From assembly GCA_964016885.1 (NCBI GenBank), contig OZ024743.1, forward strand, positions 255,440,001-255,504,000: a DNA stretch of 64,000 nucleotides, written 5' to 3'. Both the position numbers and the translations under genes were made by a program. Positions 1-64,000 of this stretch are shown here, piece after piece. Source of the stretch: Eledone cirrhosa. Taxonomy: Eukaryota. The notes under the pieces are model-generated. The model worked only from the letters and a program-made list of their open reading frames with translations, had not been told where the DNA came from and did no database searches. Numbering within the stretch: position 1 is the first letter of the stretch; every line of letters starts with the position of its first letter.

Positions 1-174
1 AAGTACTTCTGTAAAAAAAGCCATGTATATATACATATATAACTTTATAAGTATATGTATCTATCTCTATCTATCTATATATGTAAATATGCATGTATGA
101 TATATACATATATATATATATGTATCTCACTCTTTCTCTCTATATATATACACACACAGACACACACATATATA

Positions 175-385
175 TATATTCATTTATTATAGCTAAGCAG
201 TGAGAAGTTTTTCTCAGGAGTTTCACTTGTGCACTCACAGGATCATCAGACACGATGTCTAATGATCCTGCATGTGTGCAAGTTAAACTCCAGAGTAACA
301 AATCTCACTGCTTTGCCATTATAAATGAATATTTAAACTCTACTTTGATATTGAGTACATTTGCTCACATCTGTCAATAAGATAC
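175..385. mobile_element. Short non-coding fold-back element containing a degenerate type I hammerhead (Penelope-type tail)
   Basis: Inverted arms ~175-252 / 256-332 with apex CGA at 253-255. The minus arm reads CTGATGA-TCCTGTGAGTGCACAAGT-GAAAC-TCCTGAG. The plus arm reads TGT-CTAATGA...TAAAC-TCCAGA-GTA-ACA (stem I TGT/ACA). The tail matches 54840-54900. Confidence 0.65.
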
Positions 386-1900: not shown

Positions 1901-2169
1901 GGTAAATTTGCACCAACAGAACCTGGACAAGCAGATAAAATAGACAATAAATGATGATGATAATGATGTTGTTGATTTGGTTATGTATTCTTTATAATGG
2001 CGAACTGGTGTTTTGTTACACTAGACTTTCACCTGTGTACTCATTCTCACAGCAATTAACAGTACACAGATAAATATATGTGTATGCATATATGTATGTG
2101 TGTGTATATATGTGTGAGTGTATGTATATGTATATATGAGTATATGTACATACGTACACACACACACAC

Positions 2170-13411: not shown

Positions 13412-13414
13412 CGC

Positions 13415-14439: not shown

Positions 14440-14467
14440 CTGACGATGTTGCAGATGTGCAACGAAA
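14440..14467 (+). ncRNA. Hammerhead-like core in the Penelope 3' UTR (mirror copy at 11961-11988, minus)
   Basis: CTGACGA-T-GTTGCA-GATG-TGCAAC-GAAA with a perfect 6-bp stem II. Stems I and III could not be resolved by eye. Confidence 0.5.
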
Positions 14468-14709
14468 GATTTATGTAAACTATATATATATGTGTTTGTC
14501 TATATTGTATCTGTATTATTTTTGACCGCCGGTCAGTCAATGGCAACATTGAGGACCGAGTAAGTTAGATCGCAGATATATATATATAAAAGACAGCGAG
14601 AAGCGAAAACCAACCAAACAGTGAGTGTGTTCTGTTATTAATTCTGGCAATATTACGCAAATATGACCCTCCCCAAATATAACAATATATATATATATAT
14701 ATATATTAT

Positions 14710-23819: not shown

Positions 23820-24675
<856 letters not shown>

Positions 24676-24813: not shown

Positions 24814-24895
24814 TGTCTCCTGATGAGTTCGATAATCGAGATTCATCCTAAATAATAGGATATCTCAAAATATGAACGAAACCATGGTAGAGATG
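24814..24895 (+). ncRNA. Type I hammerhead ribozyme, intact core, extended stem II
   Basis: TGTCTC-CTGATGA-GTTC-[43 nt with an internal hairpin]-GAAC-GAAAC-CATG-GTA-GAGATG. Palindromic stem III ACCATGGT, GUA cleavage triplet, 6-bp stem I. Confidence 0.85.
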
Positions 24896-25381: not shown

Positions 25382-25480
25382 CGTGTGTATAATCGTAGCT
25401 ATCGTGCTTCCATGGGCGGTATGACAAAATTGGCATTCAATATTCATACAGAACAGAGTGTGAATAGTATGAAAAAGTGA

Positions 25481-26969: not shown

Positions 26970-27005
<36 letters not shown>

Positions 27006-29080: not shown

Positions 29081-29144
<64 letters not shown>

Positions 29145-30475
29145 TGTATACTATATTGTTATTTTATTGTATATTGTATTTTTATTGTATATTGTATATG
29201 TATTTTACGGTTTCGTTTATATATGTATATGTGGAAGCATGTGTGTTTAAGCAAATATCCATATGTGCATGTGGCTGTCCGTGTACGTATGTATATATAT
29301 ATATGTACATGTATATATGTGTGTATGTATATATGTATATATATATGTGGGGGTGTGTATGTATGTAGAGTTTTATATATATGTGTGTGTATGTATGTGT
29401 GTGTATTTATATGTACGTATGTGTATTTTGTATGTATATGTATGTATATATATATATATATGTATATAAGGTTATGCGTAGGTATATGCGTGTGCGTATG
29501 TATATGTGTATGTTTGGGTGTGTGTGTGTACTCATATAGACATGTGTGTATAAGTATGTATGTGTGATTATACATGTGTGTGTGTATATATGTGTGCGTA
29601 TATATATATGTATATGTGTATACGTGTGTCTCTGCATGCGTGTGTATATGTGTATACGTGTGTGTCTGTATGCGTGTGTATATGTGTGTGTGTATGTGTG
29701 CTAATGTCTTTGGAGTGTGTCTGTCCTTGATGCCTATCCATAAGGATATGCGTGTATGTGCGTGTGTATCTATGTATGTGTCTGACAGTGTTTGTGTATA
29801 TATGTGCAGATGTGCCCGAACGCCGATATGTGTCTTTGTATGCGTGTACGTATGTGTCTGCGCGTGTGTGCGCGTATGCGTGCGTCTGAGACCTGATGTA
29901 TCGGGCTGTTTAGGCAGGCGCCAATAGGCATGTGGCGGTCGGTATGTGGGTGTGTGTTTGCCTGTGTATGTGTAAGAGAGGGAGAGTGTGTGCGTGTATA
30001 TATGCGCATGGGGTATGTGTGTCTACATATGTATGCGTACATATGTGTATGCATGCATGTGTGTGTGTGCCTGCGCGTGTGTATGTATGTGTGTGTGTAT
30101 ATATGTGGGTACATACTCGGGAGTGTGAGCAGACGTGTGCGATACCAAACGCAGCATCGCTGCATTGACGTGTGTCGGAGGGAGCTGGCTGATGACCCGT
30201 GTAGTGGTAATAGTGACTAGAACTTATGATGACGTAGAAAAACAACAGCCAATGGCATGACAAGAATGGATGATGTTTTTTGAAGGTGTTTTTTTTACGA
30301 TAACACCCCAGTGAGAAAATTTGCACCGAAGTGAATTGCCTGTGTCCGAAGAAACCTGCAGCCGTAGAATCAGCCAGATCCATACAATGATCATGTCTCG
30401 AGCTACCTGCCAGCGAAACAATTGTAACACGCAATAAACTGAGTCCAGATACATCACTGATTTTTCGTTTTTTTA
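25481..30475 (-). mobile_element. 5'-truncated Penelope-like element with ~2-kb inverted, microsatellite-rich arms (25481-27541 / 28532-30475)
   Basis: Unique anchors (e.g. CATCTGGACTCAGTTTATTGCGTGTTACAATTGTTTCG and AAGGTAAGTGTATTCATGTGATATACTAC) recur in reverse complement. The spacer carries a GIY-YIG remnant. Confidence 0.85.
27941..28372 (-). pseudogene. Penelope GIY-YIG endonuclease remnant (frameshifted)
   Basis: RTCNCRADTQCPL/GKCLTKELIYKC...TYIGTTSTAFKSRMYNHTNSF...STRL.../RKCRLCLHEA...NMKSEIIRTCRH. Confidence 0.85.
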
Positions 30476-30507
30476 TACTATATATATATATATATATATA
30501 GTGAAAA

Positions 30508-34493: not shown

Positions 34494-34614
<121 letters not shown>

Positions 34615-34842
34615 TGTAATAAACAACATAAGGCAATTATTCCATTTACCAGTGGTTTCTTAAAAGCAAAAAATGTTGCTTTCAATCATGAGTATGAAAA
34701 AAATTCTGGTCTATTTATTGAATTGGATTTTAAAAAACAAAAATGCAATCTATATGAAAGTGAGGCTGGAGAAGGAAGAAGGGAAGGAAAAATAAAATAA
34801 AAACACACGTGCAAACGCACACACACACACACGATTATATAC

Positions 34843-34889
<47 letters not shown>

Positions 34890-35506
34890 CACACATACAT
34901 ACACACACACATATACACATATATATGTGTATATATATACATACACATACATATACACATACATACATACACACATAAATATCAACATATCCATACATAC
35001 ACATACATATATACAACCACACACATATATATACACATATATATATAGAAATATAAATATATATATATATATGCATACACATTCACATACATAGCCATAC
35101 ACACATACATATACATACATACATACACACAATCATACGTATATACACACGTAGATACAAACACATACATACACACATATATACATGCATACATATGCAT
35201 GCACAATATTAGAACAAATTTACACACCTCTACATATTCACACACGCAAATAAATATAAGAAAAAAATATATATAAAACATAATAAAGACAAAATTTGAC
35301 AGCTATAAAGGCAACAAATAAATGAAAAAACACACGTGGTAAGCAATACACACAAATGCAAGTACACATACATACGTAAAAAATAAATACATACACTCAC
35401 TCTCACACATAAATATACATATACAAATACATAAAGACATACATACGCATACACAAATACATACACACACACACATATACAAATATACACACTCATATAC
35501 ATACAC

Positions 35507-35589
<83 letters not shown>

Positions 35590-35739
35590 CATACATAGCC
35601 ATACAATTATACACATACAAATACGTTCATATCACAAACACCCACATCCAAATACAAACACACATATATATATATATATATGTGTGTGTAAAACTCATTC
35701 TTAGATAATTCATATGAACCTTATTTAACTCTAAAATAT

Positions 35740-35792
<53 letters not shown>

Positions 35793-35905
35793 CACATACA
35801 TACACATACATACTTACTAACATACACATATATACCTACACACACATATATACATACACATACGTATGCATACGTACACACACACACGTACATATACATA
35901 TATAA

Positions 35906-35998
<93 letters not shown>

Positions 35999-36292
35999 AA
36001 GAACAAAAATAATATAAAATAAATATTTTATATATAAAAATTTGACAAGTAATAAATAAAAATATATATATATATATTTAGAAAAGGGTATAAATACCCA
36101 TAGCAGACCTAGAGCACTCAACAAATTCATGGAGCAAAAGATCAATGAAAATATTCATCAAATCACTATATATACACCCTAATACAATTATACATATACA
36201 CACACACACATAAAATGATATACATACACACACACACACAAAAAACCCAACCACAGAAATACAAACACAAATACGAAAACGTATATATACAT

Positions 36293-36327
<35 letters not shown>

Positions 36328-36394
36328 CGTTATTCCGGGTTGAATCGGAGATGAATGAAACAGTTCTAGTCCTGTAGAATCTCTTCTATATTAA

Positions 36395-36469
<75 letters not shown>

Positions 36470-36747
36470 TAGGAAGAAGCCTGACCCTACGGCAGAGCTC
36501 ATGCCTTTTCTCAGGCTATTATTTAAAAACACACAAAACCATTATATAAAAAATTTATATCTAAAAATAAAAAAATGTTTGGTATGTGAAGGGTAAGGCA
36601 AAAAAATAGGGGGGAAAGGAGGGGGGAAATGACACAGGAAAATGTTTAAATATAAGGGGAGATAAGGGAGAAAGAGAATACAAGAGTACAGAACGTGGAT
36701 TCAGCAGGTAAAAAAACCGTAGTAGAAGTAAAGAGCAGGAAAGGAGT

Positions 36748-38100
36748 TCAAGGCGGTTGAGTTATCATAGTAATGTCAATCCAGTTACAGATCAGATGTG
36801 ATTTCAGATGAGGACAACATCTGAAGATCTCGGTCTTTGAGTTCAGGCAAGCAGAAGTGGCTTTCATGTTTAGCAAAATTCTATATTTTTCTGTGGTACA
36901 CAAAGATCAATTATTTGTGCCCCTTTGGTACTCCCTCGAATGGTCTAAAATAGACCAATCGATAGAGTACGGGATGTTTTTATCCTTGAATTCCCACACC
37001 TCACTTGCGAGGGCCGTTGTTCTTCGTTTATCGGAGTGCTTAAAAGAAGCGACATGTGAGTAAAACCTGGTTTTAAACCTGTCCTGGGTCATGCCGACAT
37101 ATCGCTCACTCCTGGCTGGCTGGTTGTTGATTAAAGGTGTTATTTTAGACTCATAAACAACAGATTTTATGTTACATTTGCCCTCCAATGGGCATTCATC
37201 CGGCTTCCTGCAACTGCATCCTGGATTTGTTCTCGTATGATTTGAATTAGTGATCTTGGACTTCATAGATGGGCAACAAGAGTAACTGATCTTAACTGCA
37301 TTCCTATTAAATATCTTATAATATCTATGATTAGGAGGAAAATGTTTATCTAAGAGTTCAAGGAATTTCCTTCCTACATTAGTTTTGACAGTTAGAGAGA
37401 AGGGGGGTGTAAACGAAATAATTTTCCTTTTCCTGTTATTGTGGTTAGTTTTAGGGGGGGGGGGGGGGTAAATAATAAATTTGTTCAGTAAAACCGCTGT
37501 TCATAAGGGCTTTATTATAATAAGGGGCGGCTTTATTAAAAATGTCTATAGACGAAGATAAGGTAGAAATCCTACGGCTAATGTTGGGAATAAGATTATT
37601 AAAAACTATAGGGGTGTGGCAAGACTCTTTGTGTATATACCTAAGATTTTCATTCGGTTTATGATAAGGTTTAAAATAGGCGGTAAGTAGATCAAGATTA
37701 ATATCAAGAAAGTTAGCACTGGTAAGGTTCGTATCTATAGTGATTTTAAGGTTAAGATTAGCAAAGGTATTGATTAAGTCTTTACGGAATTTATCAAGGC
37801 TATGGCCGTTGGTGGTATGAGAAACTGCCAATCCGTCATCACGGTATAAACCGATATTATGGGAAGGAAATTTCTCTTTGAGGGTGTGGAGAAGGAATAA
37901 TCCTACTAAATCACACACATCCGCACTGTCATATGAACCCATTGCAACATCAAAAGAGTTTTCAGGGTTTGACTTTTTAACCCCAACATTTTCATTAGTA
38001 AAGAGTAAAGTTTTTCTACCATAAAAGATAATGTCTTCTTCTAATTTAGAAATATTAATGAAGGGTCTTGCAAACTCTAAGGCATTAGTTAATAAGGAAA
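36748..38100 (-). pseudogene. Penelope-like RT + GIY-YIG endonuclease (frameshifted; Nematis-like motifs)
   Basis: FDVAMGSYDSADVCDLVGLFLL, GLYRDDGLA, NFLDINLDL, PYHKPN, YIHKESCH; then CSCRKPDECPLEGKC, VVYES..YVGMT..FKTRFYSH, /DLCTTEK..LNSKTE..CPH. Confidence 0.9.
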
Positions 38101-38318
38101 CAGCTGTATAATTGTATTAGGGTGTATGTATATGCATCATTATATATAGTGATTTGATGAATATTTTCATTGTTCTTTTGCTCCATGAACTTGTTGAGTG
38201 CTCTAGGTCTGCTATGGGTATTTATACCCTTTTCTAAATATATATATATATATATTTTTATTTATTACTTGTCAAATTTTCATATATAAAATATTTATTT
38301 TATATTATTTTTGTTCTT

Positions 38319-38423
<105 letters not shown>

Positions 38424-38667
38424 TTATATATGTATATGTACGTGTGTGTGTGTGTGTGTGTACGTATGCATACGTATGTGTATGTATATATGTGTGTGTA
38501 GGTATATATGTGTATGTTAGTAAGTATGTATGTGTATGTATGTGTGTATATATATATATATATGTGTGTGTGTTTGTATTTGGTTGTGCGTGTTTGTGAT
38601 ATGTACGTATTTGTATGTGTATAATTGTATGGCTATGTATGTAAGTGTGTGTATATATATATATATA

Positions 38668-38760
<93 letters not shown>

Positions 38761-39480
38761 ATGTATATGTGTGTGTATATGTGTATATATGTGCGTGTGT
38801 GTGTATGTATTTGTGTATGCGTATGTATGTGTTTATGTATTTGTATATGTATATTTATGTGTGAGAGTGAGTGTATGTATTTATTTTTTACGTATGTATG
38901 TGTAGGCGCATTTGTGTGTATTGCTTACCACGTGTGTTTTTTCATTTATTTGTTGCCTTTATAGCTGTCAACTTTTGTCTTTATTATTTTTTATATATAT
39001 TTTTTCTTATATTTATTTCCGTGTGTAGAGGTGTGTGTAAATTTGTTCTAATATTGTGCATGCATATGTATGCATGCATATATGTGTGTATGTATGTGTT
39101 TGTATGTACGTGTGTATATACGTATGATTGTGTATATGTATGTATGTATGTATGTATGTATCTATGTATGTATGTATGTATGTATGTATGTATGTATGTA
39201 TGTATGTATGTATGTATGTATGTATGTGTGTATGGCTATGTATGTGAATGTGTATGCATATATATATATATATATTTCTATTTCTATATATATGTGTATA
39301 TATATATGTGTGTGGTTGTATATATGTGTGTATGTATATAATCGTGTGTGTGTGTGTGTGTGTTTGCATGTGTGTTTTTATTTTATTTTTCCTTTCCTTC
39401 TTCTTTCTCCAGCCTCACTTTTATATAGATTGCATTTTTGTTTTTTAAAATCCAATTCAATAAATAGACCAGGAATTTTT

Positions 39481-39535
39481 CTTTCTGATGATTGAAAGCA
39501 ACATTTTTTGCTTTTAAGAAACCACTGGTAAATGG
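39481..39535 (+). ncRNA. Type I hammerhead ribozyme at the outer end of the Penelope inverted arm
   Basis: CTGATGA-TTGAAAGCAA-CATTTT-TTGCTTTTAA-GAAAC-CACTG-GTA-AATGG. Stem II is 10 bp, stem I is partly decayed. The mirror copy at ~34640-34690 has a mutated core. Confidence 0.75.
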
Positions 39536-39632
39536 AATAATTGCCTTATGTTGTTTATTACATAACTATTAAGCTCTGTTACCTACATAGAGCACTCTTT
39601 TTCCTGGACTTTTCCGACGGAATTACTTCATT

Positions 39633-39689: not shown

Positions 39690-39789
39690 GTGTGGTAAGA
39701 TACCAAGTGGACCATAACACACTAGCGTAATCAATACTAGCTGTCGAAACAGTCGGAGCTTAGCCGTCGGGGTCCTGACTATTTTCCTT

Positions 39790-39790
<1 letters not shown>
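39690..39790. mobile_element. Inverted/rearranged fragment of the 24305-24495 family
   Basis: 39690-39748 is the reverse complement of ~24437-24485. 39748-39790 is a forward match to ~24365-24415. Confidence 0.6.
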
Positions 39791-42499: not shown

Positions 42500-42820
42500 A
42501 GTGGATTGGCAGAATTGGTAGAGGGTCGGACATGCTTTCCAGCATAGTTATGTCCCTTTACAATCTGAGTTCAAATCCCGCCGAGATTAACTTTGCCTTT
42601 CATCCTTACGAGGTCGATAAAATAAAGTACCAGTAATGTACTGGGTATTTGCTGGCCTTGTGCAAAAGTAGAAACAATTATTATTTTCAAACACAATTGA
42701 AAAATATAGACAGTATATCATAATTGTTTCTACTTTATGCACAAGGCCAGCAAATATCCAGTCCATTACTGGTACTTTATTTTATCGACCCCGTAAGGAT
42801 GAAAGGCAAAGTCAACCTCT
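42500..42820. mobile_element. Two Meta-like SINEs tail-to-tail (42500-42680 plus; 42722-42820 minus, truncated)
   Basis: A-box TGGCAGAATTGG and B-box GAGTTCAAATCCC, followed by a reverse-complement partial copy. Confidence 0.8.
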
Positions 42821-42825
42821 ATAAG

Positions 42826-43997
42826 ATAGATATTACTGTTGTGTGGTTTAACATCACAATACAATATAGATATTACTGTTGTGTGGTTTAACATCGCAAT
42901 AGAATATAGATATTACTGTTGTGTGGTTTAACATCACAATAGAATGTAGATATTACTGTTGTGTGGTTTAACATCACAATACAATATAGATATTACTGTT
43001 GTGTGGTTTAACATCACAATACAATATAGATATTACTGTTGTGTGGTTTAACATCACAATACAATATAGATTTACTGTTGTGTGGTTTAACATCACAATA
43101 GAATATAGATATTACTGTTGTGTGGTTTAACATCACAATAGAATATAGATATTAGTGTTGTGTGGTTTAACATCACAATACAATATAGATTTACTGTTGT
43201 GTGGTTTAACATCACAATACAATATAGATATTACTGTTGTGTGATTTAGCATCACAATAGAATATAGATATTAGTGTTCTGTGGTTTAACATCACAATAC
43301 AACATAGATATTACTGTTGTGTGGTTTAACATCACAATACAATATAGATATTACTATTGTGTGGTTTAACAACACAATAGAATATAGATTTACTGTTGTG
43401 TGGTTTAACATCACAATACAATATAGATATTACTGTTGTGTGGTTTAACATCACAATACAATATAGATATTACTGTTGTGTGGTTTAACATCACAATAGA
43501 ATATAGATTTACTGTTGTGTGGTTTAACATCACAATAGAATATAGATATTACTGTTATGTGGTTTAACATCACGATAGAATATAGATATTAGTGTTGTGT
43601 GGTTTAACATCACAATACAATATAGATATTACTGTTGTGTGGTTTAACATCACAATACAATATAGATATTACTGTTGTGTGGTTTAACATCACAATAGAA
43701 TATAGATTTACTGTTGTGTGGTTTAACATCACAATAGAATATAGATATTACTGTTATGTGGTTTAACATCACAATAGAATATAGATATTAGTGTTGTGTG
43801 GTTTAACATCACAATACAATATAGATATTACTGTTGTGTGATTTAACATCACAATAGAATATAGATATTAGTGTTCTGTGGTTTAACATCACAATAGAAT
43901 ATAGATATTACTGTTATGTGGTTTAACATCACAATAGAATATAGATATTACTGTTGTGTGGTTTAACATCACAATACTATATAGATATTACTGTTGT
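42826..43997. repeat. 40-bp minisatellite, ~29 copies
   Basis: Unit ATAGATATTACTGTTGTGTGGTTTAACATCACAATA(C/G)AAT, head-to-tail with no spacers. Confidence 0.95.
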
Positions 43998-45085: not shown

Positions 45086-46775
45086 GAAAAGCACAATGTA
45101 TTATGAGATATAACCTCAGTTAAGAATTTTATTCTGGTTTGAAATGTTCTTCAACTTTCAGATTTAAGATCTTCCGTGTAAAGACTATGTGTCCAGAAGA
45201 GAGACAGACAGGAAGATTTAGAAAAGATGAGAGTGGTGCCAGAGAAGCTGGGAGATAAAAGTAGAGAAAGAAAGAAAGATAAAATGATAGATTGAGAGAG
45301 AGAGAGTGAGAGAGAGAGAGAGACTATAGTTTTGTTTTATCAATCAGATGGTTGACTTCAGTTTTATAATGTTAGAATACTAGAAAAAGAGTGCAGTTGT
45401 CAAGGCCTAGCAACTTTGATAATGGTTCTTTGTCACCAAACGAACTGCCATGAATTTAATGGCTATTCTCAGATCATGACCAAGCAGCATGGAATAGCAG
45501 CAGGTATTACCTCCTCCACCCTGCACACACACACATTCCCATTCACTGCTGCAAACCTTCACATCAAACATACACTATCAGAGAAAGAATTAACAAGTCT
45601 GATAACAATGATAATGAATAAATTAACTGGAACACATTTATAACGGTTTTATGGGCCTTTGATGTGAGTTTGATTTCATTTGGAGAAAAGCTGCGTGGAA
45701 GAAAGTGTATCAATATTTACGACAATTACAAGATAATGTTCCATCTTAGGAGCTAAATAGATCCTAACATACACTCTGTGAGAAACCAACTAGATTATAA
45801 TATCATAATATACAATTATCTAGCTATAATAATCTATAATAGTTTTTGGAGAGCAAGCAGATTAGAGTAGACTGAAGTGTAAGTAGAACTTAGAATGCCA
45901 CATAGTTTTAGATATGGTTATAAAGTATATAGAGTACTATAGGAAATATGTAATATGAAAATGATATCCATATCACCCACCTTACCAGTAATTGAAGCAG
46001 GTTGGTTGTTGTTTTAACAAGATGGCTGGGGTGTAATTTTGAAAGACATGTTTGAATTTAATTTATGTCTTGTGTGGTATGATTTTATGGGTAGAGACAA
46101 TTTTATGATTATGATTTGTATTTACATGAATTTGTGGATGGCATGAGTTTGGTTTAGATTTGTTTATATTTTAGTTAAGTCATATACGATCATAGTTATA
46201 TGTCTGTTTTACCCATTGTGATTGAGGCTATGCTGGGATACTGTTTTTATTACATATAACTAGAGTATAAATCTTATATCATCATATATCTATTTTCCCT
46301 TGCTGGATTGAACAGGTTGCCCCATTCTGCAAATATAACATGTTGACCATATATTCTACATTTTCTATAGTTTCTACTGCTGGGTGGCCATCCCAATACC
46401 AACTACTGTATAAAATGTATGGGGTGCATTTTATTGTGACACCAGCACTAAAACTACGGAAAGTGTAATGAGTGTATGTGTATGTGTGTGTGTGTGAGTG
46501 GCATGTGTGTGTTTGTATGCATGAGTGTTGGTGTGTGAGTGGCATGTGTGTTTGTATGCATGAGTGTTGGTGTGTGAGTGAGTGTGTGTGCTGTCAGTGT
46601 CAATAAGTGGTGTTTTTTTTATTTTTTATTACGACCATGCTGTAAAATGAAGGGGTAGAGAGGGCCCATGAGTCCAGTAAGACATCCTCTCTAGTGCTGG
46701 TGGCACAAATAAAAGCACCCAGTCCATGCTGTAAAGTAGCACTGGTGTTAGGAAGGGCATCCAACCAGTGTATCA

Positions 46776-49700
46776 ATGCAACAAGTATATAGAAACAACA
46801 AAAATATGAAGACGTCGCATCTCAGAGTTGCAACACTTAATGTTGGCACTCTCTCAGGTAGATCTGCTGAAATAGCAGAGATGTTGGAGAGAAGGCATGT
46901 GGATGTGTGCTGCATGCAAGAGGTGAGATGGAGAGGTGCCTCTGCGAGACTAATCACAGTCAAACATCTTAGCTATAAGCTTTTCTGGGTAGGTAAGGAT
47001 GATGGGTTAGGGGGAGTAGGCATTTTCCTGGCTGAGAGATGGATCAATAAGACAATAGAGGTAGTTCAAGTTAGTAATCAAATAATTAATCTTAGATTAG
47101 TTTTAGGCAGGAGACTACTGACAATCGTCTCTGTCTATGCTCCCCAAGCAGGACTAGGCAAAGAAGAGAAAGACTGCTTTTACGAGCAACTTTTACAAAC
47201 AACCACAATGACAGAGGACGGAGACATCGTTATGCTAGCAGGTGACTTCAATGGTCATGTTGGACAGCTCCAGGATGGTTACACTGGGGAACATGGTGCG
47301 CACGGTTACGGCTCAAGAAATGAAGATGGAGTGAGACTTCTTGAATTTTGTGATGCAAGTACACTGACTATTTGCAACACTAACTTCCAGAAACCTGCCA
47401 ACCACCTAATAAAACCTACAAATCAGGCGAGCACATAATCCAGATTGACTTCTTACTAGTTAGGCAGCAGGACAGGCCGATGGTGTCAAATACCAAGGCA
47501 TACCCTGGGGAAGAATGTACCCCACAGCATAGGTTAGTCGTTAGTGATATCTCAATAAGCCAATAAGCAAGAGATGGAATCAGACATACAGGAAGGAGTG
47601 GAGAAGAAAGGTCTGGAAACTAAAAGACCTTTCACTAAAATACAAATTTAGGAAAGCCCTTCAAGATGTGTATGATGAAAAAGAAGATGATTTAGAGACG
47701 TATGACATAGATAATAACTGGAATTTCTTACGCGACAACTTACTGAAGGCTACTGATGAAACTTATGGCTGGAGCATAACTCCAACCAGACAGAGAGTGA
47801 CCTGGTGGTGGAACATCACAGTAGATAAATCCATTAGAGACAAAAGACTAGCATGGAAGGCTTGGAAAAAGGGTGGGAGTAGAGAAGGATATACAGCCGC
47901 TAAGAGAGAAGCTAGACGTCAGGTGTACTTAGCACGTAGGGAGGCTGAGAGTAGGAGGTTTGCCAATGTTCTGCGATGGGAAGATCAGAGGCGTGCGGTG
48001 TTCCACATTGCAAGGCAGTGTGTCAAAGCAAATCAGGATGTTGTTGGAGATAAATGTGTCCGGAATGATGCCGGTGTACTTAGTGTCATGAATGATCAGA
48101 AAAAGGAGGCCTGGAAATGTCATTATGAGAGACTGATGAATGTGGAGAACGAATGGGAGAGAGAGAAATTACCCTCAGTAGATCTGACAGAGGGACCAGC
48201 TATTGAGATTGAGGAATATAGGGTCCAAGAGGCGATTAAGGAAATGAAAAATGGTAAGGCTGCTGGACTATCGAGAATAGTTGCTGAGATGCTGAAGGCA
48301 TCAGGGGACGTAGGCACTAAACTGGATGCACGCATCATCAATCAGGCTATATATGGTGGTGTCATACCCAAAGACTGGTGCAGCAGTATTCTCATAAATT
48401 GCTACAAAGGTAAAGGGGATGTTATGGAGAGGAGCAATTATAGGGGCATAAAACTGATGGATCAGGTTATGAAAGTGGCAGAAAGGATATTAGCACAACT
48501 AATTCCGTCAAACCCATGCTAGCGTAGAAAATGGACGTTAAACGTTGATGATGATGATGATGATGAATTAGAGAAAGGGTCAAACTAGATGAGATGCAGT
48601 TTGGTTTTGTGCCTGAGAAAAGTACAACAAATCCCCTCTTCTTGGTGAGACAATTACAAGAGAGGTTCTTAGAGAAGAATAAGCCACTATAAATAGCCTT
48701 TGCTGACCTAGAGAAGGCCTTTGATAGGGTACCCTGATCTGTCATCTGGTGGTCCCTAAGGAGACTAGGTGTTGAGGAATGGCTTGTGAGGACAGTGCAA
48801 ACTTTGTACAGAGGTGCTGTCAGTAAAGTCAGAGTAGGAATGGAGTTTAGTGAGGAATTCCAGATACAAGTGGGAGTACATCAAGGTTCGGTTCTCAGCC
48901 CGTTCTTGTTCATTATAGTCCTCCAAGCCATAATAGAGGAGTTTAAGACTGGCTTTCCATTGGAAATTCTCTATGCCGACGATCTGGTTCTTATAGCAGA
49001 ATCAGTAGAGGAGCTAGAGAATAAATTCTGGCTATGGAAACAGCAGTTGGAAGCAAGAGGACTGAGAGTGAACATAGCTAAGACAAAAGTGTTGATGAGT
49101 AGAAAAGAGGACAAAACTCTGATTCCATCAGGGAAATGGCCATGTTCTATATGCAGAAAAGGAACTGGCATAAATTCTATAAAATGCACACAATGCAGAT
49201 CCTGGGTACACAAGAGATGTAGCGGGATACCAGGCAAACTAACAGGTAGGGAGAAATACGCATGCAGTAGATGTACAGGGAAATTAAACAGTGGAAGTCG
49301 CATTGATAGACACATTTTTCAAATGCAGGCAGGTGCTATAGAAGTGGTGGATAGCTTCCGATACCTAGGAGATCAGATTAGCATGGGAGGAGGGTGTTCC
49401 AAGGCCATAGTATCTAGAATAAGGACGGGTCAGAAGAAGTTTAGGGAGCTGCTGCCTCTGCTGATGAAGAAGGGTTTCTCCCTGCGTACGAAAAGCTGGT
49501 TATATGATGCCAGTGTGAGGAGCCCGATGCTGCATGGTAGTGAGAAATGGGCAGCAACTGCAGAGGATATGCGACGGCTGGAGAGAAATGAGGCAAGCAT
49601 GCTCCGTTGGATGTGCAATGTCAATGTGTGTGAACGACCCAGCATGAATGTGTTGAGAGAGAAACTGTGTCTAAGAGGGATAGAATGTAGTGTGCGGGAG

Positions 49701-49880
49701 AGGAGACTGAGGTGGTATGGACATGTGATGCGCATGGAGGATGACCGATGGGTGAAGAAGTGCCAGGAAATGCCAGTTGAATGAAGACATGGTAGAGGTA
49801 GACCCCGAAAAACATGGGCGGAGGTGGTGAGAGCAGACCTCATATCGCTGAAACTCACGGAGGAGATCACGAAGGATCAT
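46776..49880 (+). pseudogene. RTE ORF: AP endonuclease - reverse transcriptase (frameshifts, stops, nested insertion)
   Basis: LRVATLNVGTL, CMQEVRW, SVYAPQ, AGDFNGHVG; [38 protein letters not shown]. Confidence 0.92.
48505..48565 (+). mobile_element. 61-bp RTE 3'-tail insertion nested in the RTE ORF, AATT target-site duplication
   Basis: AATT|CCGTCAAACCCATGCTAGCG...GACGTTAAACG(TTG)(ATG)n|AATT. Removing it restores QLIRERV. Confidence 0.85.
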
Positions 49881-50260: not shown

Positions 50261-50361
50261 TATATATATGTTGGTATATATATATATATATATATAAACA
50301 AACATACATATTTATATATATAATATATAAGATCAAAAGATGGTTAAAGGATTTCCATGTA

Positions 50362-50428
50362 TTTTATTATGCACATTTCAAAAACAAACATCATCATGCA
50401 ATAATATTTGTGTTTTCATCAGATAAAA
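50362..50428 (-). ncRNA. Type I hammerhead ribozyme (inverted-arm copy)
   Basis: Reverse complement of 52446-52512 with stem III ATGTGCAT. Confidence 0.75.
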
Positions 50429-50992
50429 CAGGAGAACATGATATGAAGGCTAAAAAACACTTGTGGATAGTGCAGTTTTAAATCAACATCTGAAAAGTAG
50501 TTTTAGATTGATGTGTGATATTGGGAAAAATATTTTATTTAGAGGGGGGGGGTGGAAAGGATGAAAAAAGGGGAGGAGATGAGAGTGAAGGTGGAGAGGG
50601 AGAGATGGGTGATAGAGAGAAAGAGATAGTTTTTATAACTGAGAGAAGATATATTGTTTTACATAGAGAGGTTGAAAACCGTTGGAAGATAATGTATAAA
50701 TTAAAAGAATTTGAAAATTAACGAAGGGAAAAATATGTACGAGGAAAGAGAGGGAGTTGATATGTATTGAGATTAAAAATTGAGATTAAAAAGTTTGAAG
50801 ATAGAGAGAAAAAATAATAATTGCGGATGAATATTCTAACGTCAAAAAGGTGTATGTTTATAAGTATTATGGCAATTTCAAAATTAATGAAGAGAAAAAA
50901 TTATTAAGGTTTGCGTGTTGCAGGATTTGAGAAAAATAATGTGAAGTTAAAGTTTGTATATTGAAGGAATTGATAATATGTGCGAAGAAAGA

Positions 50993-51252
50993 AACTTAAA
51001 AGAACCAACACGGCTCTCTCAGAACTCATATGGTCCTTGAAACACAAAAACATTAAATATACCATCTTTTGGAAGAAGGTTTCTTCTGCGTCCTCATACT
51101 TGAACAGCTCTCTATCTAAAATCTGTAATCTCTGCCTAAATGAAAAATTTACCATTATCTTTAATCTAGATTATATAATAAATAGACGTACTGATTTGTT
51201 TTCTATCTGCCTGCATAAATTCCATAGGACTTTTCACAAAGTATACAGCTAA
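50993..51252 (+). pseudogene. Penelope GIY-YIG endonuclease C-terminal remnant
   Basis: TALSELIWSLK...IFWKKV..ASSY...CNLCLNEKFTII...INRRTDLFSICLH. Confidence 0.8.
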
Positions 51253-52445
51253 TATTCAATTCTTTATCAATTTATAATCTTTTCTCAAAGGCACATATAC
51301 ACACACCTCTTTAAATTATACCCATCTTCCTACCTTACTTCAAAGGGCATTATACACTCTATAATACTTGTTTACTCATTACCCTCATTCTATCTTCACC
51401 TTGTAAAATCCTTCATAACATATACATTTGTTTTTTTGACGTTAGAATATTCATCCGCAATTATTATTTTTTTCTCTCCATCATCAAACTTTTTAATCTC
51501 TCCTTCTTTTGACGCTAGAATATTCATTCTTAATACATATTAACTCTTTCTTCGCACATATTATCAATTCCTTCAATATACAAACCTTAACTTCACATTA
51601 TTTTTCTCAAATCATCTAATACACAAACCTTAATATTTTTTTTAATACATATTAACTCTTTCTTCGCACATATTATCAATTCCTTCAATATACAAACTTT
51701 AACTTCACATTATTATTCTCAAATCCTTCAACACGCAAACCTTAGTAATTTTTTCTCTTCATTAATTTTGAAATTGCCATAATACTTATGAACATACACC
51801 TTTTTGACGTTAGAATACTCATCCGCAATTATTATTTTTTCTCTCTATCTTCAAACTTTTTAATCTCAATTTTTAATCTCAATACATATCAACTCCCTTT
51901 CTTTCCTCGTACATTTTTTTCCCTTCGTTAATTTTCAAATTCTTTTAATTTATACATTATCTTCCAACGGTTCTCAACCTCTCTATGTAAAACAATATAT
52001 CTTTTCTCAGTTATAAAAATTATCTCTTTCTCTCTATCACCCATCTCTCCCTCTCCACCTTCACTCTCATCTCCTCCCCTTTTTTCATCCTTTCCACCCC
52101 CCCCCTCTCTAAATAAAATTTTTTTTTTCCTCGTACATATTTTTCCCTTCGTTAATTTTCAAATTCTTTTAATTTATACATTATCTTCCAACGGTTTTCA
52201 ACCTCTCTATGTAAAACAATATATCTTCTCTCAGTTATAAAAACTATCTCTTTCTCTCTATCACCCATCTCTCCCTCTCCACCTTCACTCTCATCTCCTC
52301 CCCTTTTTTCATCCTTTCCACCCCCCCCCCTCTAAATAAAATATTTTTCCCAATATCACACATCAATCTAAAACTACTTTTCATATGTTGATTTAAAACT
52401 GCACTATCCACAAGTGTTTTTTAGCCTTCATATCATGTTCTCCTG

Positions 52446-52512
52446 TTTTATCTGATGAAAACACAAATATTATTGCATGATGATGTTTGTTTTTGAAATG
52501 CGCATAATAAAA
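52446..52512 (+). ncRNA. Type I hammerhead ribozyme, intact
   Basis: TTTTAT-CTGATGA-AAAC-ACAAATATTAT..ATGATGTTTGT-TTTT-GAAA-TGCGCA-TA-ATAAAA. Stem I is 6 bp, stem II is at least 11 bp, stem III ATGCGCAT is palindromic, and the triplet is AUA. Confidence 0.85.
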
Positions 52513-52640
52513 TACATGGAACTCCTTTAACCATCTTTTGATCTTATATATTATGTATACTCCAGTCCTACAAACTGTAGAGTGCTTCTTATCCGATATC
52601 TGCATTGCTTTATTGTACTACAATAAAACTCACCTCCTGC

Positions 52641-54731: not shown

Positions 54732-54802
54732 TATGCACAAACACTCTCTCTCACATACATACACACACACACACTAACACACACACATATATATATATAT
54801 CT

Positions 54803-54920
54803 ATATTCATATTATTAAGGCTAAATATCAAGTCTTGTTACAGGATTCACTATTTAGCCTTAATAAAATGAATATTAAACTGTACTTTATTATTGAGTAC
54901 TCTTTTCTCTCAGCCACCAA
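54803..54920. mobile_element. Fold-back fragment of the 175-385 family starting at the predicted ribozyme cleavage site
   Basis: ATATTCATATTATTAAGGCTAAATA...TCTTGT-T-ACAGGA...TATTTAGCCTTAATAAAATGAATAT. The tail aligns with 298-360. Confidence 0.6.
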
Positions 54921-55282
54921 CCACATATGGATCATCATCATCATTTTACGTCCGCTTTTCCTTGCTTGCAAGGGTTGGACAGGTCCTATTCAGCACAGCA
55001 TCTCTCCACAGATGTTAAACAACGATGATGATGATGATGATATATATACATATATATATATGTGTATATAAATGCTTACATACATACATATATATGTGTG
55101 TATGTGTGTAGAATGTAGATGAGAATCAGCACCAAAGTTGAATAAAATTATACGACCATAATATAGCGAGACATATATTTTATTGTGAGACATATCTTTT
55201 ATTGTTTTCCAACTTAATAGGATTGAATATAAAATTGATAATTATTATCATATAGATTTTATTACAAACTTTCCAACATATA

Positions 55283-58170
55283 TCATCATCATCATCATCA
55301 TCATCGTTTAACGTCCATGTTCCACGCTTGAATGGGTTTGGACGGGAGTTTTCCCACTTGAGGCAAGAGTGGTTGTCTTGCTCGCATAGGACTGTCTGGC
55401 GGGTTTTCTACAGCTGGATGCCCTTCCTAACACCAACCACATTTACAGTGTGGGACTGGGAGGTTTTTACCGTGTTGCCTACACGGCCACATTACAGCGT
55501 GGACTGTGTGTTTCTTGTCGTGACACCTACACGATCTCATTTGTTTCGGCCTGGATGTTGTGGCACCAACATAAATTTACATTGAAAGGGGCGGTGTGGA
55601 TGGGGTGGGGGTGGTGGGACGGGGGTGTATTTTGTTAGAGATGCCTACTGACTGTAGTAGGTTTTACTTTGTATTTAGGTAAGGCGGGTCTTCTCTGTTA
55701 CTGAGTACCGCCAAAGATCTCGGTCCAGTGACATTGTCTTGGAGAGGTGTAAGTGTGTGAATTTATCAGCTCGTCCCAGGTTTTTCTGGGTCTGCCTACT
55801 CCGTGGCTACCATCTATCTTTATTGCCCTGCACTTTGTTATACAGCTGTCGTCTTTCATGCGCATCACGTGACCATACCAACGTAGCCTTCTCTCGAGTA
55901 AACAACATCTGATCCCTCTTATTTCTAATTTTTTCCTTAGTTCGTTTATGCTTTGCCGTTCACGTATATTACTATTATACATCCAGCGGAGCATGCAAGC
56001 TTCGTTCCTCTCTAGTCTGCGTATATCCTCTGCACACAATGCCCAGGTCTCACTGCCATGCAACATTGCTGTTCGTATGCCGGCATCATACAAACCTGCC
56101 TTTCATTTTTAGGGAGAACCCTTTAGCAGCTAATAGTGGTATAAACTCTCTGAACTTTTTCCATCCAGTTCTGACTCTAGCTACTGTACTTTCAGAGCAT
56201 CCTCCGCCACTGCTGATTTTGTCACCCAGGTAACGGAAGCTATCCACTATTTCTATAGAACCCTCTGCGCAATTGAAAGATATAGTATTGTGTGGGCACT
56301 TGCTGCTACTTATTGCACCAGAGCACCGGCCACATGTAAAATCTGTGTTCTTAGTTAGCTTACCTGTGATCCCACTACATCTTTTATGCACCCATACTTT
56401 GCATTTGGGACATAAAATGGAGTTTCTATCTACGCCTTTCCTACACACTGAGCATGGCCATTTCCCGGAAGGGACCGGCGCCTTATTGTCTTTCCTACAA
56501 ACTAGAACTTTAGTCTTGGCCAGGTTAATTTTAAGGCCTTTTCATTCTAGGCCGTGCTTCCATGTTTGGAATTTCTTCTCTAGCTCGGCCATTGATTCAG
56601 CTATGAACGTTAGATCATCTGCGTATAGGAGTTCCCATGGGCAGCCGGTCTTGAACTCCTCTGTTATAGCCTGAAGGGCAATAATAAATAGTAGGGGGCT
56701 AAGAACAGAGCCCTGATGGACACCAACTTTTACGCTAAACTCTTCACTATATTCGTTGTTAATTCTAACCTCGCTGACTGTTTCTTTATACATGGCTTGT
56801 ATAGCTCTCACAAGCCATTCGTCAACACCTAGTTTTCTAAGAGCCCACCAGATAATGGAACGGGGGAATCTGTCGAAGGCTTTCTCCAAGTCGACAAAAG
56901 CTAAGTATAGGGGTCTACTTTTAGCTAGGTACTTCTCCTGTAGTTGTCGTTCAATGAAAAGAGCGTCTGTGGTACTTTTGCCTGACACAAACCCGAACTG
57001 CATTTCATCTAGATCAATTCTCTCTCTGATTAGTTGCCCTATTACTTTTTCCGTGACCTTCATGACCTGGTCGATTAATTTAATGCCTCTATACTTACTC
57101 CTATCTAGGGCGTCTCCTTTACCCTTGTAACAGTTAACGATGATGCTGCTACGCCAGTCCTTCGGAACAACCCCATTCTGTATGACTTGGTTTACTATCC
57201 GGGTGACCATGGTGTGTCCCACCGTACCAGAGGCTTTCAGCATCTCAGCAACTATTTCGGAAGGCCCAGCCGCCTTACCCGTCTTCATATCTTTGATTGC
57301 CTTACTTATTATACTACCTTCGACTAACACTGCTGGTCCCTCTATTGGGTCGATGTGGGGGAGACTGTCTTTCTCCCATTTATTTTCCTCATTTAGTAGC
57401 CTTTCGTAGTGACACTTCCAAGCTACCTTCTTATCAGCGTCAGTGATGGCAAGTACGCCATCATCGTTAAGTACACACTTCTCCCCGACAATATCACGGT
57501 TTTCCTTGACACATTGCCTAGCAATCCTGAACACCTCACGTTTTGGTACTCGCGTTGTAGAACATGCTTGAACTTTCTTTCCTCTGCTTCCCTTCTTGCG
57601 AAGTACACTTGTCTCCTAGCTTCCCTCCTGGCCACTTGATAGTCTTCTCTACTTCCCCCATCCCGCCATGCTTTCCAAGCCTGCTTCTTGGCCTTGATTG
57701 ACCCCTCCATCTTACTGTTCCACCACCATGTTACTCTCCTCCTCCCTACAGGCCTGCTCCAGCCACAGACTTCGTCTGCCGCCATCAGCAGGTTTGCTTT
57801 CAGGAATTCCCACTGTTCCTCTACCTTGTACGACTCTAATTGCTCTTACTTACTGTCGAAAGCATCAAGTAATATGCTTTGAAATTTATTTCTGGCTGTG
57901 GGATCCTTTAGCTTCCATATTTTTCTCCTGAGGATAGTCCTCTTCTGCTGTCTAGTACGTCTCGTCCTGACTATGAGGTCGCTAATTATCAGTCTATGTT
58001 GGGAGGTGCATTCTTCATGGGGGAGGGATTTAGTGTTTACAACAGACACTCTGTAACGTCTTCTGGTAAGGATATAATCTAACTGGCTGGTATGTTCTCC
58101 TGATCTGTAGGTGATCAAGTGATTGTCTAGTTTTTTGAAGTTAGTGTTACAGATAGTTAGGTTGTTTGCA
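55283..58170 (-). mobile_element. 5'-truncated RTE LINE (APE C-terminus + RT), frameshifted
   Basis: SQLDYIL..SQHRLII; [58 protein letters not shown]; (CAT)n tail on the plus strand. Confidence 0.92.
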
Positions 58171-58884
58171 TATATATATAATCTCAGACATTCACTTCTA
58201 AATATACACTTGTATGTATGTATGGAAAATGGACGTTAAACGATGATGATGATGATGTATTTAGATATGTGTGTGTATATATACACACACACATGGATGT
58301 ATATCTTCTCATACACACACATACATATATATATATATGTGTGTGTGTGCATATATTAACTCAAACTCACATATATATATACATTCAGGCACACACATGA
58401 TGGAACAGAAAATAATCACACAGAAACACACATATATATGCACATGGGAGAGAGAGAGGGCGGTGCAGGAGAAATATAAGAATTTGTTTTCTTGTGGATA
58501 AACTTGCCTATTACAGTCTGTTTGCTGTGTTCCATAAGTCTGTAAGCCTTTTCATAATAGTTAAAGTTAAAAATGCTGCTTTACTGATGGGACAGTATAT
58601 GCTTCCATATTTCCGTAGTGATATCTAAGATCAGATGTAGTTATAGTGTGACATCTACATATATTGATACTACCATCTAGTGTATATTTACATGGTAGTG
58701 ATAGTGTGTGCGTGTGTGTGTGTGTGTTTATGTGTGTGAGAATGAGAAAGATAATGATAATAAAGTAGGAAGATTGGAAAAGAATTATAAAGATAAATAT
58801 GTTTTTTGTGATGATTATATTGATAATTGTATTTTTCATGATGACAATGATGATAGCTATGATGAAGTTGATGACTATGATAAT

Positions 58885-60390: not shown

Positions 60391-63212
60391 TTTTAACATT
60401 TAATGTCATGCAGGCTTCAAAAATATGGTCAAACCATCTGAATCCTGGAATCTCAATGCCACTTGTTCAAGGAAAACTGATGGTTCCTATACCCAACTGT
60501 TCAACATTTCATGGCAAAAGCACACTACCACCAACGTTCTTTATGGTGATCTGCCATAAGATTCATTGAATGTTCGATCTCATTGCTTGGCTCCTGTTGG
60601 TTATGTTTCCCTCCATGATAAACATGTAAGGAAACTGCTTCTCTGGTCACCAGACGCAAAGTGCCAAGTAGGATATCCAAACTTAACAATCAAGACTCTG
60701 TTGATGGCAGACACTGACCTCATTTGACTGAATTCTCTTGCTGTGATGGGAGATTATGAAGTCCGGAACAAGATCTTTGTGCATGTTTCACCTTTGATGA
60801 TAAGATGACTCAAGAAGAGAGAGAAGAGAAAAACACTATTGTCTACTTGAAAGAAATGTTTTTATAAATTTATAACTCACACTTATTTAGTTTTATCTGA
60901 CCTCTAACATGGTTATATCTCGTAATAGGGTCCGTGGGGGTTTTAATGATAGAGGCTCATATTTTGTCTTGAAATGCAATATTAAATGTTGCATCCCTAA
61001 CCGCACACTTGGCTAAGGATTCACTGAAATTATTGATTCTTGTTCATAAAGATACAACCAAGGGCTTACAAAAGTAATACACCCTCTTACTGTAGCCAAA
61101 ATTACAGTGTGTCACAACATTCATTAACTCCATATTATAGTTGCCATACTATTGTGTTGTCAAAGTCATAAACTCATCTTTATAGAATTACAACTAATGA
61201 TGAGTTGCTAAAATCATTTATGGAAGTATAACTAATAATGGATTGCTAAAATCATTGACTCGTGTTAAAGGAAATACAAACAAGGACTAGGCCCATTGCT
61301 TCTCAATTGTGCCTCAACATATTAAGAAATGTTTATGGTGATATGCTTATTTCAAATCTCCATCTTAGGATGACTATGAATTAGAGTCTGTATTCAGAAT
61401 GTTCTGAAGTTGCCTCAAGCCCGATGGTAGGCCTGCTAAGTAATCACCACAACAAATTGACTCCTATTTAAGAAACTAAAATTAAGGTGATGTCATCATT
61501 ATGCTTATGAAGCTAAAATTAAAACAGTCACCAATCAAATTAATTCCTGTTCATGAAGCTAAAACCAAGAAGTCACTAAAATAATTGATTTGTTTCTATC
61601 AAGCTAAAACTAGAGAATAATCACCAATGTTATTGATACCAGTTTATCTGACTAAATCCCTGCAAATTCTTCAAAACGATTTGAAAATTATAAACGGTGT
61701 CTTTCATTAGAACTATGGTAATGAGAGGGTTAACAAACTTTAATGCTGGTTTGTTAAGACAGTCAGTTCTCTCAAACATATCCATATTTAATTAAATATA
61801 TTTGGTTCTATGTTTGCCTGGTGTGCTGTACATAGTTATTTATTCATGGTTAGCTGTGTGAAATACTGGAGTGTGTCGTAGCAAGTAGTATGGTATTGAT
61901 TTCACTGATTGACTTATTGTGATTGAATTGATGAAATATTATTAACAGCAGGAGATGGTGGTGGTGGTCGTGGTGGTGGTGCCGGTGGTGATTGAGGTAG
62001 TATTTCTGGTGGTAGTGAAGGTGTTGATGAGGGTTGTGGTGTTGGTGATAGTGATGGTGGTGATGCAATTGGTGATAGGGGTATTAGTGATGGTAGTTAC
62101 GGTGTTTTTAGTGTTGGTGTTGCTGCGTTGATGTTGATTATTATTTTGATTGTGGTGGGGGTGATTGTGGTCGTGGTATTCATACTACTAGTAGTAGTAG
62201 TAATAATGCCCATAGTGGTGGTGAAGGTATGTGTACGTCTGTATGTTTTCACTGATGTAGAATAAACAAGGTAGCTATTTGGATATGGTGTGGTGGACTT
62301 TAGGTTTTCTGCTCAAATTCACTTAAAGAAATATTTTGTGGCTATTGGTGTTGTCTATTTGAGGCGGTACAGTTGATTCAACATGTTTCAGAGGTGAGAC
62401 AATACCAACCAGCTCTGTGAAGATTAGGCAACTGCTACAATTGTATATAAAAGATAAATCTTTACCAACATATATGTAAAATGCACCAAGTACACTCTGT
62501 AAAGTAGTAGTACCAGTGCCAGAAAAGAATCACTGAACAGATTTTATGGGCAAAAGCAGCTGGCAGGAGATCCAGGAGTAGACCCCGAGCAAATGGCTGG
62601 ATTAAATCCATGAGCACAGTTGGTCTCGCTTGGTGATCCAACCACATCAATTGAAGATGGTTGCTTCTAACTGGACCTTCTGGGAGGCATACTTGAGGGT
62701 GCTCTCAGGAATAAGTGCGCGAAGAAGAAAAAGAGAAGATATATACAAATCCTCTCTGAGACTGACATACATAGACATATGCATGTGTTTTTGTATGAAT
62801 ATATATATATTTATATGAGCACATGTGTTCACACATAGAGAATGCATTTGTTTGAGCTGTGCTATTTAATCCACATTAATGTTTCTGATATTAGCATTAC
62901 CACATTATATTTTGTTAGAGAGAGCACAGAGGACTGCATTGGCATTTCTAGAAGATAGCATATCTATATCTCACTCTCTCTATATATATATATTTATATA
63001 AACATAATTTGCTTCCACTCTTAATATGGGCTATACCTTTATGTATTCATGAGTGAATAATAATAATGTGATGAGAATACTCAATCTTCATCAGGAACCA
63101 AAACAATTATGAATTATTTTTTTCTCAGCTACCGCTGGAACAAAAGAATTACGTTAGTCATCTAGCACATGGTGTTTATGGGGCTTTTTGCTTGCAAACA
63201 AAGTGAATATTA

Positions 63213-63630
63213 ATAATTGTTTCTACTTTTGGCACAAGGCCAGCAATTATTGCAGTGTATTACTGGTACTTTATTTTATCGACCCCGTAAGGATGAAAGG
63301 CAAAGTTAACCTTGGCAAGATTTGAACTCAGATCATAAAGGGCCATAACTCTATGCTACAAAGCATGGCATCCGACCCTCTACCGATACTGCCAATCCAC
63401 CACTCTTAGCAAATATCAATAATATGAGATTATTAGAAGGGGGGTGAATTGGTAGTATTGGTAGAGGGTCTGACACCATGCTTTGCAGCATAGAGTTATG
63501 TCAATTTATGGTCTGAGTTCAAATCCCGCTAAGGTTAACTTTGCTTTTCATCCTTATGGCGTCGATAAAATGAAGCACCAGTAATGTACTGGAGTAATTG
63601 CCTGGCCGTGTGCCAAAATTAGAAACAATT
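63213..63630. mobile_element. Head-to-head pair of Meta-like SINEs (63213-63400 minus; 63440-63630 plus)
   Basis: Two near-full-length copies in inverted orientation ~40 bp apart. Confidence 0.85.
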
Positions 63631-64000
63631 TTTCTAATATTATAATTATTCACTCACAAATACATTTAGATATCCACTATGTTAAGAGCATGAACAAATT
63701 ATGTATTTCAATTTTCGGCAACTGTACATTCGCTCAGTATGCAAATGAGGCTAATCAGCCAACTATACATTTGAGAATGCTATGTATTCTCAGCAGTTCC
63801 AGCGGGTAGCTGTGATGATAATACACATTCTTGATAAGGAACAAACACTCCAGAAAAATTGTTCATTGTTTTCTCTCAGTTACTGCTGGAACAAAGGGAT
63901 GATGTTAGTCATCTAACATGTGGTCTTTATGCTTGCAAAGAAACTGAATATTAATGATATTATATTATTATAGTATTGTCATTATTATTCACTCACGAAT

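Follow-up and report, generated by a model that had tools for sequence, protein, structure and literature searches.

A short head-to-head insertion of probable Penelope-like origin, centred on a predicted hammerhead cleavage site

In the EN+ Penelope-like elements (PLEs), the described insertion layout is an inverted 5'-truncated copy beside a direct copy, with an optional tail of 30–40 bp and a bias towards microsatellites (PMC8557442), and the inverted junctions carry palindromes (PMC3846280). Dual minimal hammerhead ribozymes (HHRs) on opposite strands are also described in PLEs (PMC4209133), and their role in EN+ PLEs is called unclear in the available text of PMC8557442. No work mapping the inverted junctions of PLEs against the hammerhead was found by title, abstract start or text passage, in a search that left most of the subscription literature outside. 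A genuine pile-up of junctions at the ribozyme cut site would give the evidence for in vivo cleavage that is now missing.

The fold-back studied here, J, lies in the window, which is the whole stretch of DNA analysed (64,000 nt). It consists of two 36-nt arms placed head-to-head around a single spacer nucleotide, T54839, with 73 bases in total and 30 of 36 arm positions complementary (83%). When 54795–54930 was folded as DNA, z was −6.0 and none of 200 shuffles was equally stable, which together with the arm complementarity bears out the fold-back that the preliminary description had placed at 54803–54920. About 36 nt of the repeat are left in each arm, the ribozyme core is absent and J has no ORF; no ORF tied to the family of J and its two relatives in the window, copies A and M, was found in the window. 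Target-site duplications are optional in PLEs, and the only candidate here is a 7-nt low-complexity word, read against a microsatellite flank and an uncertain tail end. Two other identities for J were discarded: a chance AT-rich palindrome, as three block shuffles gave one match of score 30 versus 42 for J, and a MITE with terminal inverted repeats, as the repeat is internal and the tail is on one side only. The features of the family are listed in the table.

Features of fold-back J and of its relatives, copies A and M (positions in the window)
Feature	Position	Strand	Evidence or remark
Copy A left arm, inverted, with decayed hammerhead	173..252	-	CUGANGA and GAAAC boxes intact; cut triplet mutated (U16.1 changed)
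Copy A right arm and tail, with decayed hammerhead	256..372	+	C3 at 259; G5 and G12 mutated; triplet 295–297 intact
Copy M, third and more diverged family copy, running through the cut site	1981..2062	-	blastn E 0.002–0.004; nhmmer E 6e-5
(CA)n/(TA)n microsatellite, inferred insertion target, at the tail-less end of J	54761..54802	.	sequence; copy A has a similar flank at 140–172
J left arm, inverted 5'-truncated copy of the element 3' end, without tail	54803..54838	-	nhmmer E 1.5e-6 (this arm is part of the model)
J spacer, T on the + strand, fold-back centre; placed on hammerhead position 17 (A297 of copy A) by alignment	54839..54839	.	
J right arm, direct 5'-truncated copy, starting with the 3' strand of predicted helix I	54840..54875	+	
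J tail, on one arm only	54876..54915	+	clear homology to 334–358 for 25 nt, weaker beyond; right end uncertain (54900–54927)

The arms of J are homologous to 298–358 of copy A. Within the window, blastn aligned 305–358 with 54847–54900 (82% over 55 nt, E about 2e-8), and the local alignment score of 66 was reached by none of 5000 dinucleotide shuffles (mean 22.6, maximum 43). That the two copies belong to one family, as had been proposed, is supported by this formal alignment. The interval 284–360, which had been taken as a plain reference copy, turned out to be part of the right arm of another fold-back. Copy A has 80-nt arms at 173–252 and 256–335, which are 80% complementary and separated by 3 nt, and its centre at 254 lies 43 nt upstream of the cut and 5 nt before C3, beyond the entire hammerhead. 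Each arm of copy A holds an entire decayed hammerhead, and no position of the hammerhead core is lost from both arms at once. The core of copy M is also decayed. Among the left and right arms of A, copy M and J, an intact catalytic core was found in none, so the cut site of the J family is a prediction from decayed copies. Hammerhead numbering and consensus follow PMC4209133 and general usage.

Copies A and J have the same layout, with a microsatellite, an inverted arm, the centre, a direct arm and a tail on the direct arm only. Their left arms end at the same family position, which gives a shared outer boundary, and at least 25 nt of tail are common to both right arms and missing from both left arms, with weak similarity extending to about 40–50 nt. 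The two arms of J are 83% alike, versus 65–70% for J arms against copy A arms. Because of this greater likeness within J, A and J are regarded as separate insertions and J as no recent derivative of A.

Rfam at gathering thresholds gave no match in the entire window, and when relaxed to E ≤10 for the region 150–400 it gave seven weak matches with no ribozyme among them. The sole match of a structured hammerhead scan of the window was at 34051. RNA folding of six hammerhead regions, a test against shuffles that is uninformative for minimal HHRs, singled out only the fold-back D at 24305–24490 (z −4.2, where D is a DNA palindrome), and the others had z from −1.4 to +1.3. No match to the tail motif was found in bacterial and archaeal genomes.

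In all optimal alignments printed, three per penalty with five gap penalties, ACA at 54840–54842 falls on ACA at 298–300 and T54839 falls on A297, the final base of the predicted GUA triplet, 5' of the predicted scissile bond. The arm starts had earlier been set on the predicted cut site by eye, and the alignments agree with that register. The further statement that J starts exactly at the cut is less firm than it appears. At the J centre the bottom strand still shows the uncut triplet and the next bases, 3–4 nt upstream of the bond, and 54839–54850 can be aligned about equally well with the antisense of the GAAA–helix III segment (score 13 with two 2-nt gaps, versus 10 for the sense post-cut alignment; a score of 13 was reached by chance in 4–50% of simulations). 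The position of the junction is blurred by 3–4 nt through the micro-palindrome and by up to about 12 nt through the alternative antisense alignment. As read from these alignments, the J junction could be asymmetric and read through the cut site.

A census of fold-backs in the window was made blind to ribozyme motifs, by blastn self-comparison (11 self-palindromes) and an ungapped scan (10 rows). Six near-symmetric fold-backs could be placed in hammerhead-bearing families, with centres at 254 (A), 23650 (C), 24360.5 (D), 30656 (F), 50196.5 (I) and 54839 (J). Their offsets to position 17 are −43, −95, −35.5, −103, −32.5 and 0 nt in the same order. One centre is thus at the cut site (J), one in helix II (D) and four at the 5' edge of the hammerhead, and all six fall between 7 nt upstream of the core (C3−7) and the cut site. 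The census left out an ORF-like fragment with no hammerhead seen (6164), two copies of a dispersed SINE-like repeat (42701 and 63423), four microsatellite-centred rows (23224, 33215, 24675 and 35570), one weak row at 32430 and two rows that fall in the array of 40-bp tandem repeats around 43350. The ORF-like fold-back spans 6067–6262 and the SINE-like ones 42583–42819 and 63206–63641. Since fold-backs also occur in these repeats, where no hammerhead was seen, ribozyme-bearing elements are not alone in undergoing inverted duplication here.

Under uniform truncation, with centres drawn from a stretch that starts 10, 50 or 150 nt upstream of C3 and stops 20 nt short of the arm end, the probability that at least one of six centres lies within 1 nt of the cut is 0.20, 0.13 or 0.07. 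For a single junction of the J family the prior is 0.015–0.047, but J was chosen for the coincidence. The five other fold-backs, A included, kept the cut site and upstream sequence, so their templates were uncut. Among 14 hammerhead-bearing insertions listed by eye (A, C, D, E, F, G, the 34051 copy, H, I, J, K, L, M and N), a list biased towards read-through as most were recognised by their core, only J starts at the cut. Ten post-cut queries, which have low power where short, found no further copy starting at the cut site in the window. The pile-up of junctions at the cut site that an in vivo cleavage signal would produce is absent from the window, where one of six symmetric fold-backs, a small sample, is centred there. 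These results indicate that the coincidence of the J centre with the cut is real but single, and statistically unremarkable in the window. The suggestion that this fold-back is genomic evidence of in vivo cleavage is not supported, with one in six fold-backs at the cut and a chance of 0.07–0.20, and J by itself is no demonstration of ribozyme cleavage in cells.

The geometry, the homology, the one-sided tail and the flank of J are observed directly. J is likely the stub of a Penelope-like retroelement insertion, and we infer the PLE origin of its family, the state of its template and the route of joining as follows. It is probably an ordinary 5'-truncated inverted PLE insertion copied from uncleaved RNA, and its centre would have come to lie on the cut site by way of a tiny native palindrome. 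The GIY-YIG endonuclease of the PLE would nick an AT-rich microsatellite, and the reverse transcriptase (RT) would start at either of two internal sites, so that the tail is included or left out. The cDNA would stop before completion, which in these short copies means within the structured hammerhead or at its border, and its end would snap back, or pair with a second cDNA, through a few complementary bases before repair fixes the inverted arm. For J, the cDNA would run 1–4 nt beyond the scissile bond into the GT-A-AC micro-palindrome and leave a 1-nt spacer. Two cDNA ends lying 3 nt beyond the cut would anneal with a central T–T mismatch and yield a T or A spacer, as in J.

The cut site is itself a native mini-palindrome, with 2 bp around position 17 in copy A and 3 bp in copy M. 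Among mini-palindromes whose spacer is no longer than 1 nt, it is one of nine centres in A and one of six in M (58 and 67 nt scanned), and in M it is the longest. In some other families, for example I/K and D, the cut site is not self-complementary. Other junctions also sit on complementarity. D is centred at the expected place of the helix II loop, 13.5 nt ahead of G12, and the junction at 39738 has a short word that recurs in both segments it joins, when these are read in the related copy D. Complementarity of helix I can by itself produce asymmetric junctions with the entire ribozyme in one arm and a helix I start in the other. The arms at junction B apparently share 8 nt, if the left arm began at what we take to be the RT catalytic codons. 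Because the cut is a mini-palindrome and other junctions show such complementarity, landing on the cut site without cleavage is plausible. Against an uncut template, the micro-palindrome has just 2–3 bp. DNA folds of four candidate cDNA ends predicted no snap-back hairpin (0 kcal/mol), and since none of these ends folds, the energetics of snap-back give no basis for choosing between the models. In four of five informative junctions read by eye (B, E, F and I; G is opposite), the tailed arm extends further 5', and the spacer T of J fits an uncut template only if the cDNA of the tail-less arm ran furthest. An earlier steric argument for an uncut template, that a 1-nt loop is impossible, was dropped, as other junctions here also have spacers of 1–2 nt.

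A cleaved template is a possible but rather unlikely source of J. The RT would then have run off the 5'-OH end of the 3' product of the hammerhead and reversed direction after adding a single untemplated base, or a pair of run-off cDNAs would have been joined. Both arms of J start in register at the first post-cut base, as expected for such an end, and for a single junction of this family the chance of that is low, at the prior given above. If the tailed arm was made first, as the four of five junctions suggest, the spacer is A, which is not templated by uncut RNA. Reverse transcriptases add a base at a run-off end, and a spacer A would fit such tailing, but with 17% divergence between the arms a single spacer base has little weight. 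The hammerhead of PAc, the Poseidon element of Anolis carolinensis, cleaves with the element protein present (PMC11167929), but in the same paper the main substrate was unprocessed RNA and no reads ended at the cut; minimal metazoan HHRs are also poor cleavers in vitro (PMC4209133). The case moreover has n = 1 and was picked after the fact, five of six symmetric fold-backs and 13 of the 14 insertions on the biased list read through the cut, and the post-cut queries, weak where short, added no second example.

A later deletion would explain J as a longer, A-like hairpin that lost its central ~84 bp, including both cores, by microhomology at a shared AC. Copy A shows the longer form and has the same outer boundary as J, microhomology-mediated deletions of Penelope copies have been reported (PMC3846280), and a junction that is possibly asymmetric by up to 12 nt would suit such an event. 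This route is nevertheless improbable, as a 2-nt homology is so common that the site is not singled out, a symmetric outcome is more simply made at insertion, and the greater likeness of the J arms to each other than to those of A argues that J is no recent derivative of A. An antisense template, whose self-primed 3' end would form the centre without relation to the sense-strand ribozyme as proposed for the head-to-head repeats of PLEs, accounts for symmetric centres in general (PMC3846280) but is very improbable here, as it fails to predict that all six centres lie between C3−7 and the cut site and in the PAc work synthesis on sense RNA was primed from nicked DNA (PMC11167929).

The preferred reading, insertion from uncleaved RNA, leaves the positions of the other centres to be considered. 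The centres at 254, 23650, 30656 and 50196 (A, C, F and I, from three families) lie at C3−7, C3−5, C3−3 and C3+0.5, which is the 5' edge of the hammerhead. The probability that four of six centres fall in any 9-nt window is 0.003–0.036 on the C3 anchor and 0.005–0.067 on either anchor, and it is 0.04–0.23 for three of five once the related C and F are merged; the cluster was noticed after the fact and the C3 of D was assumed. It is only a lead, suggestive of a shared template boundary and more testable than the coincidence at the cut site. By analogy, a boundary of the template at helix I is a possible cause: in Drosophila virilis Penelope the 5' end of helix I is where the intron terminates (PMC4209133), and the majority of transcripts are spliced (PMC2377424). 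As alternatives, the centre may be inherited from the source copy, or the enzyme may stall on the folded ribozyme. A more speculative and doubtful extension is that fold-back centres form a fossil map of the stops of PLE RT on the hammerhead, in which a minority peak at the scissile bond would make 54839 the first genomic record of insertion from a self-cleaved PLE RNA, and the larger peak, at the 5' border of helix I, would mark a hard template boundary, for instance a splice junction or an RNA start. If this map were true, the question of in vivo cutting by the hammerheads of metazoan PLEs would be answerable from a genome assembly alone. With six measurable centres in 64 kb (about one per 10 kb), a genome-wide count would have high power.

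The window is rich in insertions of this type, among them three long head-to-head ones (about 11690–14688, 25400–30481 and 34608–39630), with inverted arms, a one-sided tail and remnants like RT and/or GIY-YIG. The assignment of these PLE-like remnants was based on tblastn, on look-alikes in the Atlas (GIY-YIG on 13–18% of cluster members, RVT_1 on 11%) and on motifs recognised by eye, and Pfam found no domain on them. The best named protein match of one remnant, with 57% identity, was from Octopus bimaculoides; this agrees with a cephalopod source without proving it. The insertion at 11690–14688 is very young, with arms 99.9% identical over 1285 bp; it has an open frame for the RT C-terminal and GIY-YIG-like parts, a partial hammerhead-like core at 14440 and 11988, and, near 13404, an asymmetric junction at which 8 nt of microhomology are apparent. 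At 25400–30481, a GIY-YIG-like remnant lies at 28088–28330 (minus strand; tblastn E 2e-11), and a hammerhead-like motif is found near each outer end, there too with a mini-palindrome at the cut triplet. The insertion at 34608–39630 contains an RT remnant (37451–38116, minus), a GIY-YIG-like remnant (36907–37500, minus), a tail on the right and hammerheads at 39485 (+) and about 34690 (−), and a further copy of its family with an intact hammerhead core is located at 34051.

Among the smaller repeats, 24305–24490 (D) is a young fold-back with 98% identical arms and a large palindromic helix III, whose tail has a 10-nt word in common with the tail of the J family. At 39690–39790 and 36330–36400, flanked by (TA)n runs, an inverted distal tail piece is joined to the 3' half of a hammerhead in direct orientation; the arrangement resembles twin priming from the two RT start sites, clearly for 39690 and tentatively for 36330. 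The hammerhead at 24820–24890, the only copy of its kind in the window, has a core that looks intact, a helix II that is long and branched, and a palindromic helix III. LINE-type remnants with RT and PHD domains by Pfam were found at 46752–49784 (+) and 55698–58235 (−), the first with an endonuclease domain. Near-identical inverted and tandem segments (97–99%) at 50315–52559, with a weak GIY-YIG-like match at 50998–51072 (E 7e-4), are possibly another young PLE-related rearrangement. The 40-bp tandem array extends over 42826–43997 with 29 copies, 94% matches and a higher-order period of 199 bp.

Of the described systems, the EN+ PLEs (Penelope/Poseidon, Neptune, Nematis) share with J the inverted and direct copies, the palindrome at the junction, the tail on one arm and the AT-rich microsatellite target, and they share the hammerhead in the terminal repeat with copy A but not with J (PMC8557442, PMC3846280). 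The microsatellite target is a weak criterion here, as the window has 151 tandem-repeat rows. J differs in keeping only about 36 nt of the repeat per arm without ORF or ribozyme core. With the minimal type I hammerheads of metazoan PLEs, copy A shares the CUGANGA and GAAAC boxes, the GUA triplet, a short helix I (3 bp seen), an extra base after position 9, a near-palindromic helix III and the occurrence in opposite-strand pairs (PMC4209133). It differs from them in that no single arm has an intact core, the G10.1–C11.1 pair is not evident, Rfam gives no hammerhead match and the RNA folds no better than shuffles.

In the in vitro work on PAc, two internal RT start sites bound a tail, which fits arms with and without the tail, and both DNA strands are nicked and extended at AT-rich sites (PMC11167929). 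PAc differs in that cleavage is dispensable, no reads end at the cut, and inverted junctions are not described in the available text; Fig. S2 of the same paper shows genomic copy ends and may bear on the claim of a cleaved template (PMC11167929). Non-LTR retrozymes also have a type I HHR in a non-coding repeat that is related to the ends of PLEs (PMC7229834; bioRxiv 10.64898/2026.07.22.740005), but they form head-to-tail tandem arrays of ~300-bp units, whereas J is a dispersed head-to-head pair. Among 150 of the 151 tandem-repeat rows, no tandem array was found at the A or J locus. The R2 retrotransposon, whose 5' end is set by an HDV-like ribozyme, is a precedent for a 5' junction defined by a ribozyme, and the twin-priming inversions of L1 are a precedent for inversions joined by microhomology. 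Both differ from J in the ribozyme and RT class, and L1 inversions come without duplication of the 3' end. J thus adds one more short inverted PLE-type insertion to an already known kind.
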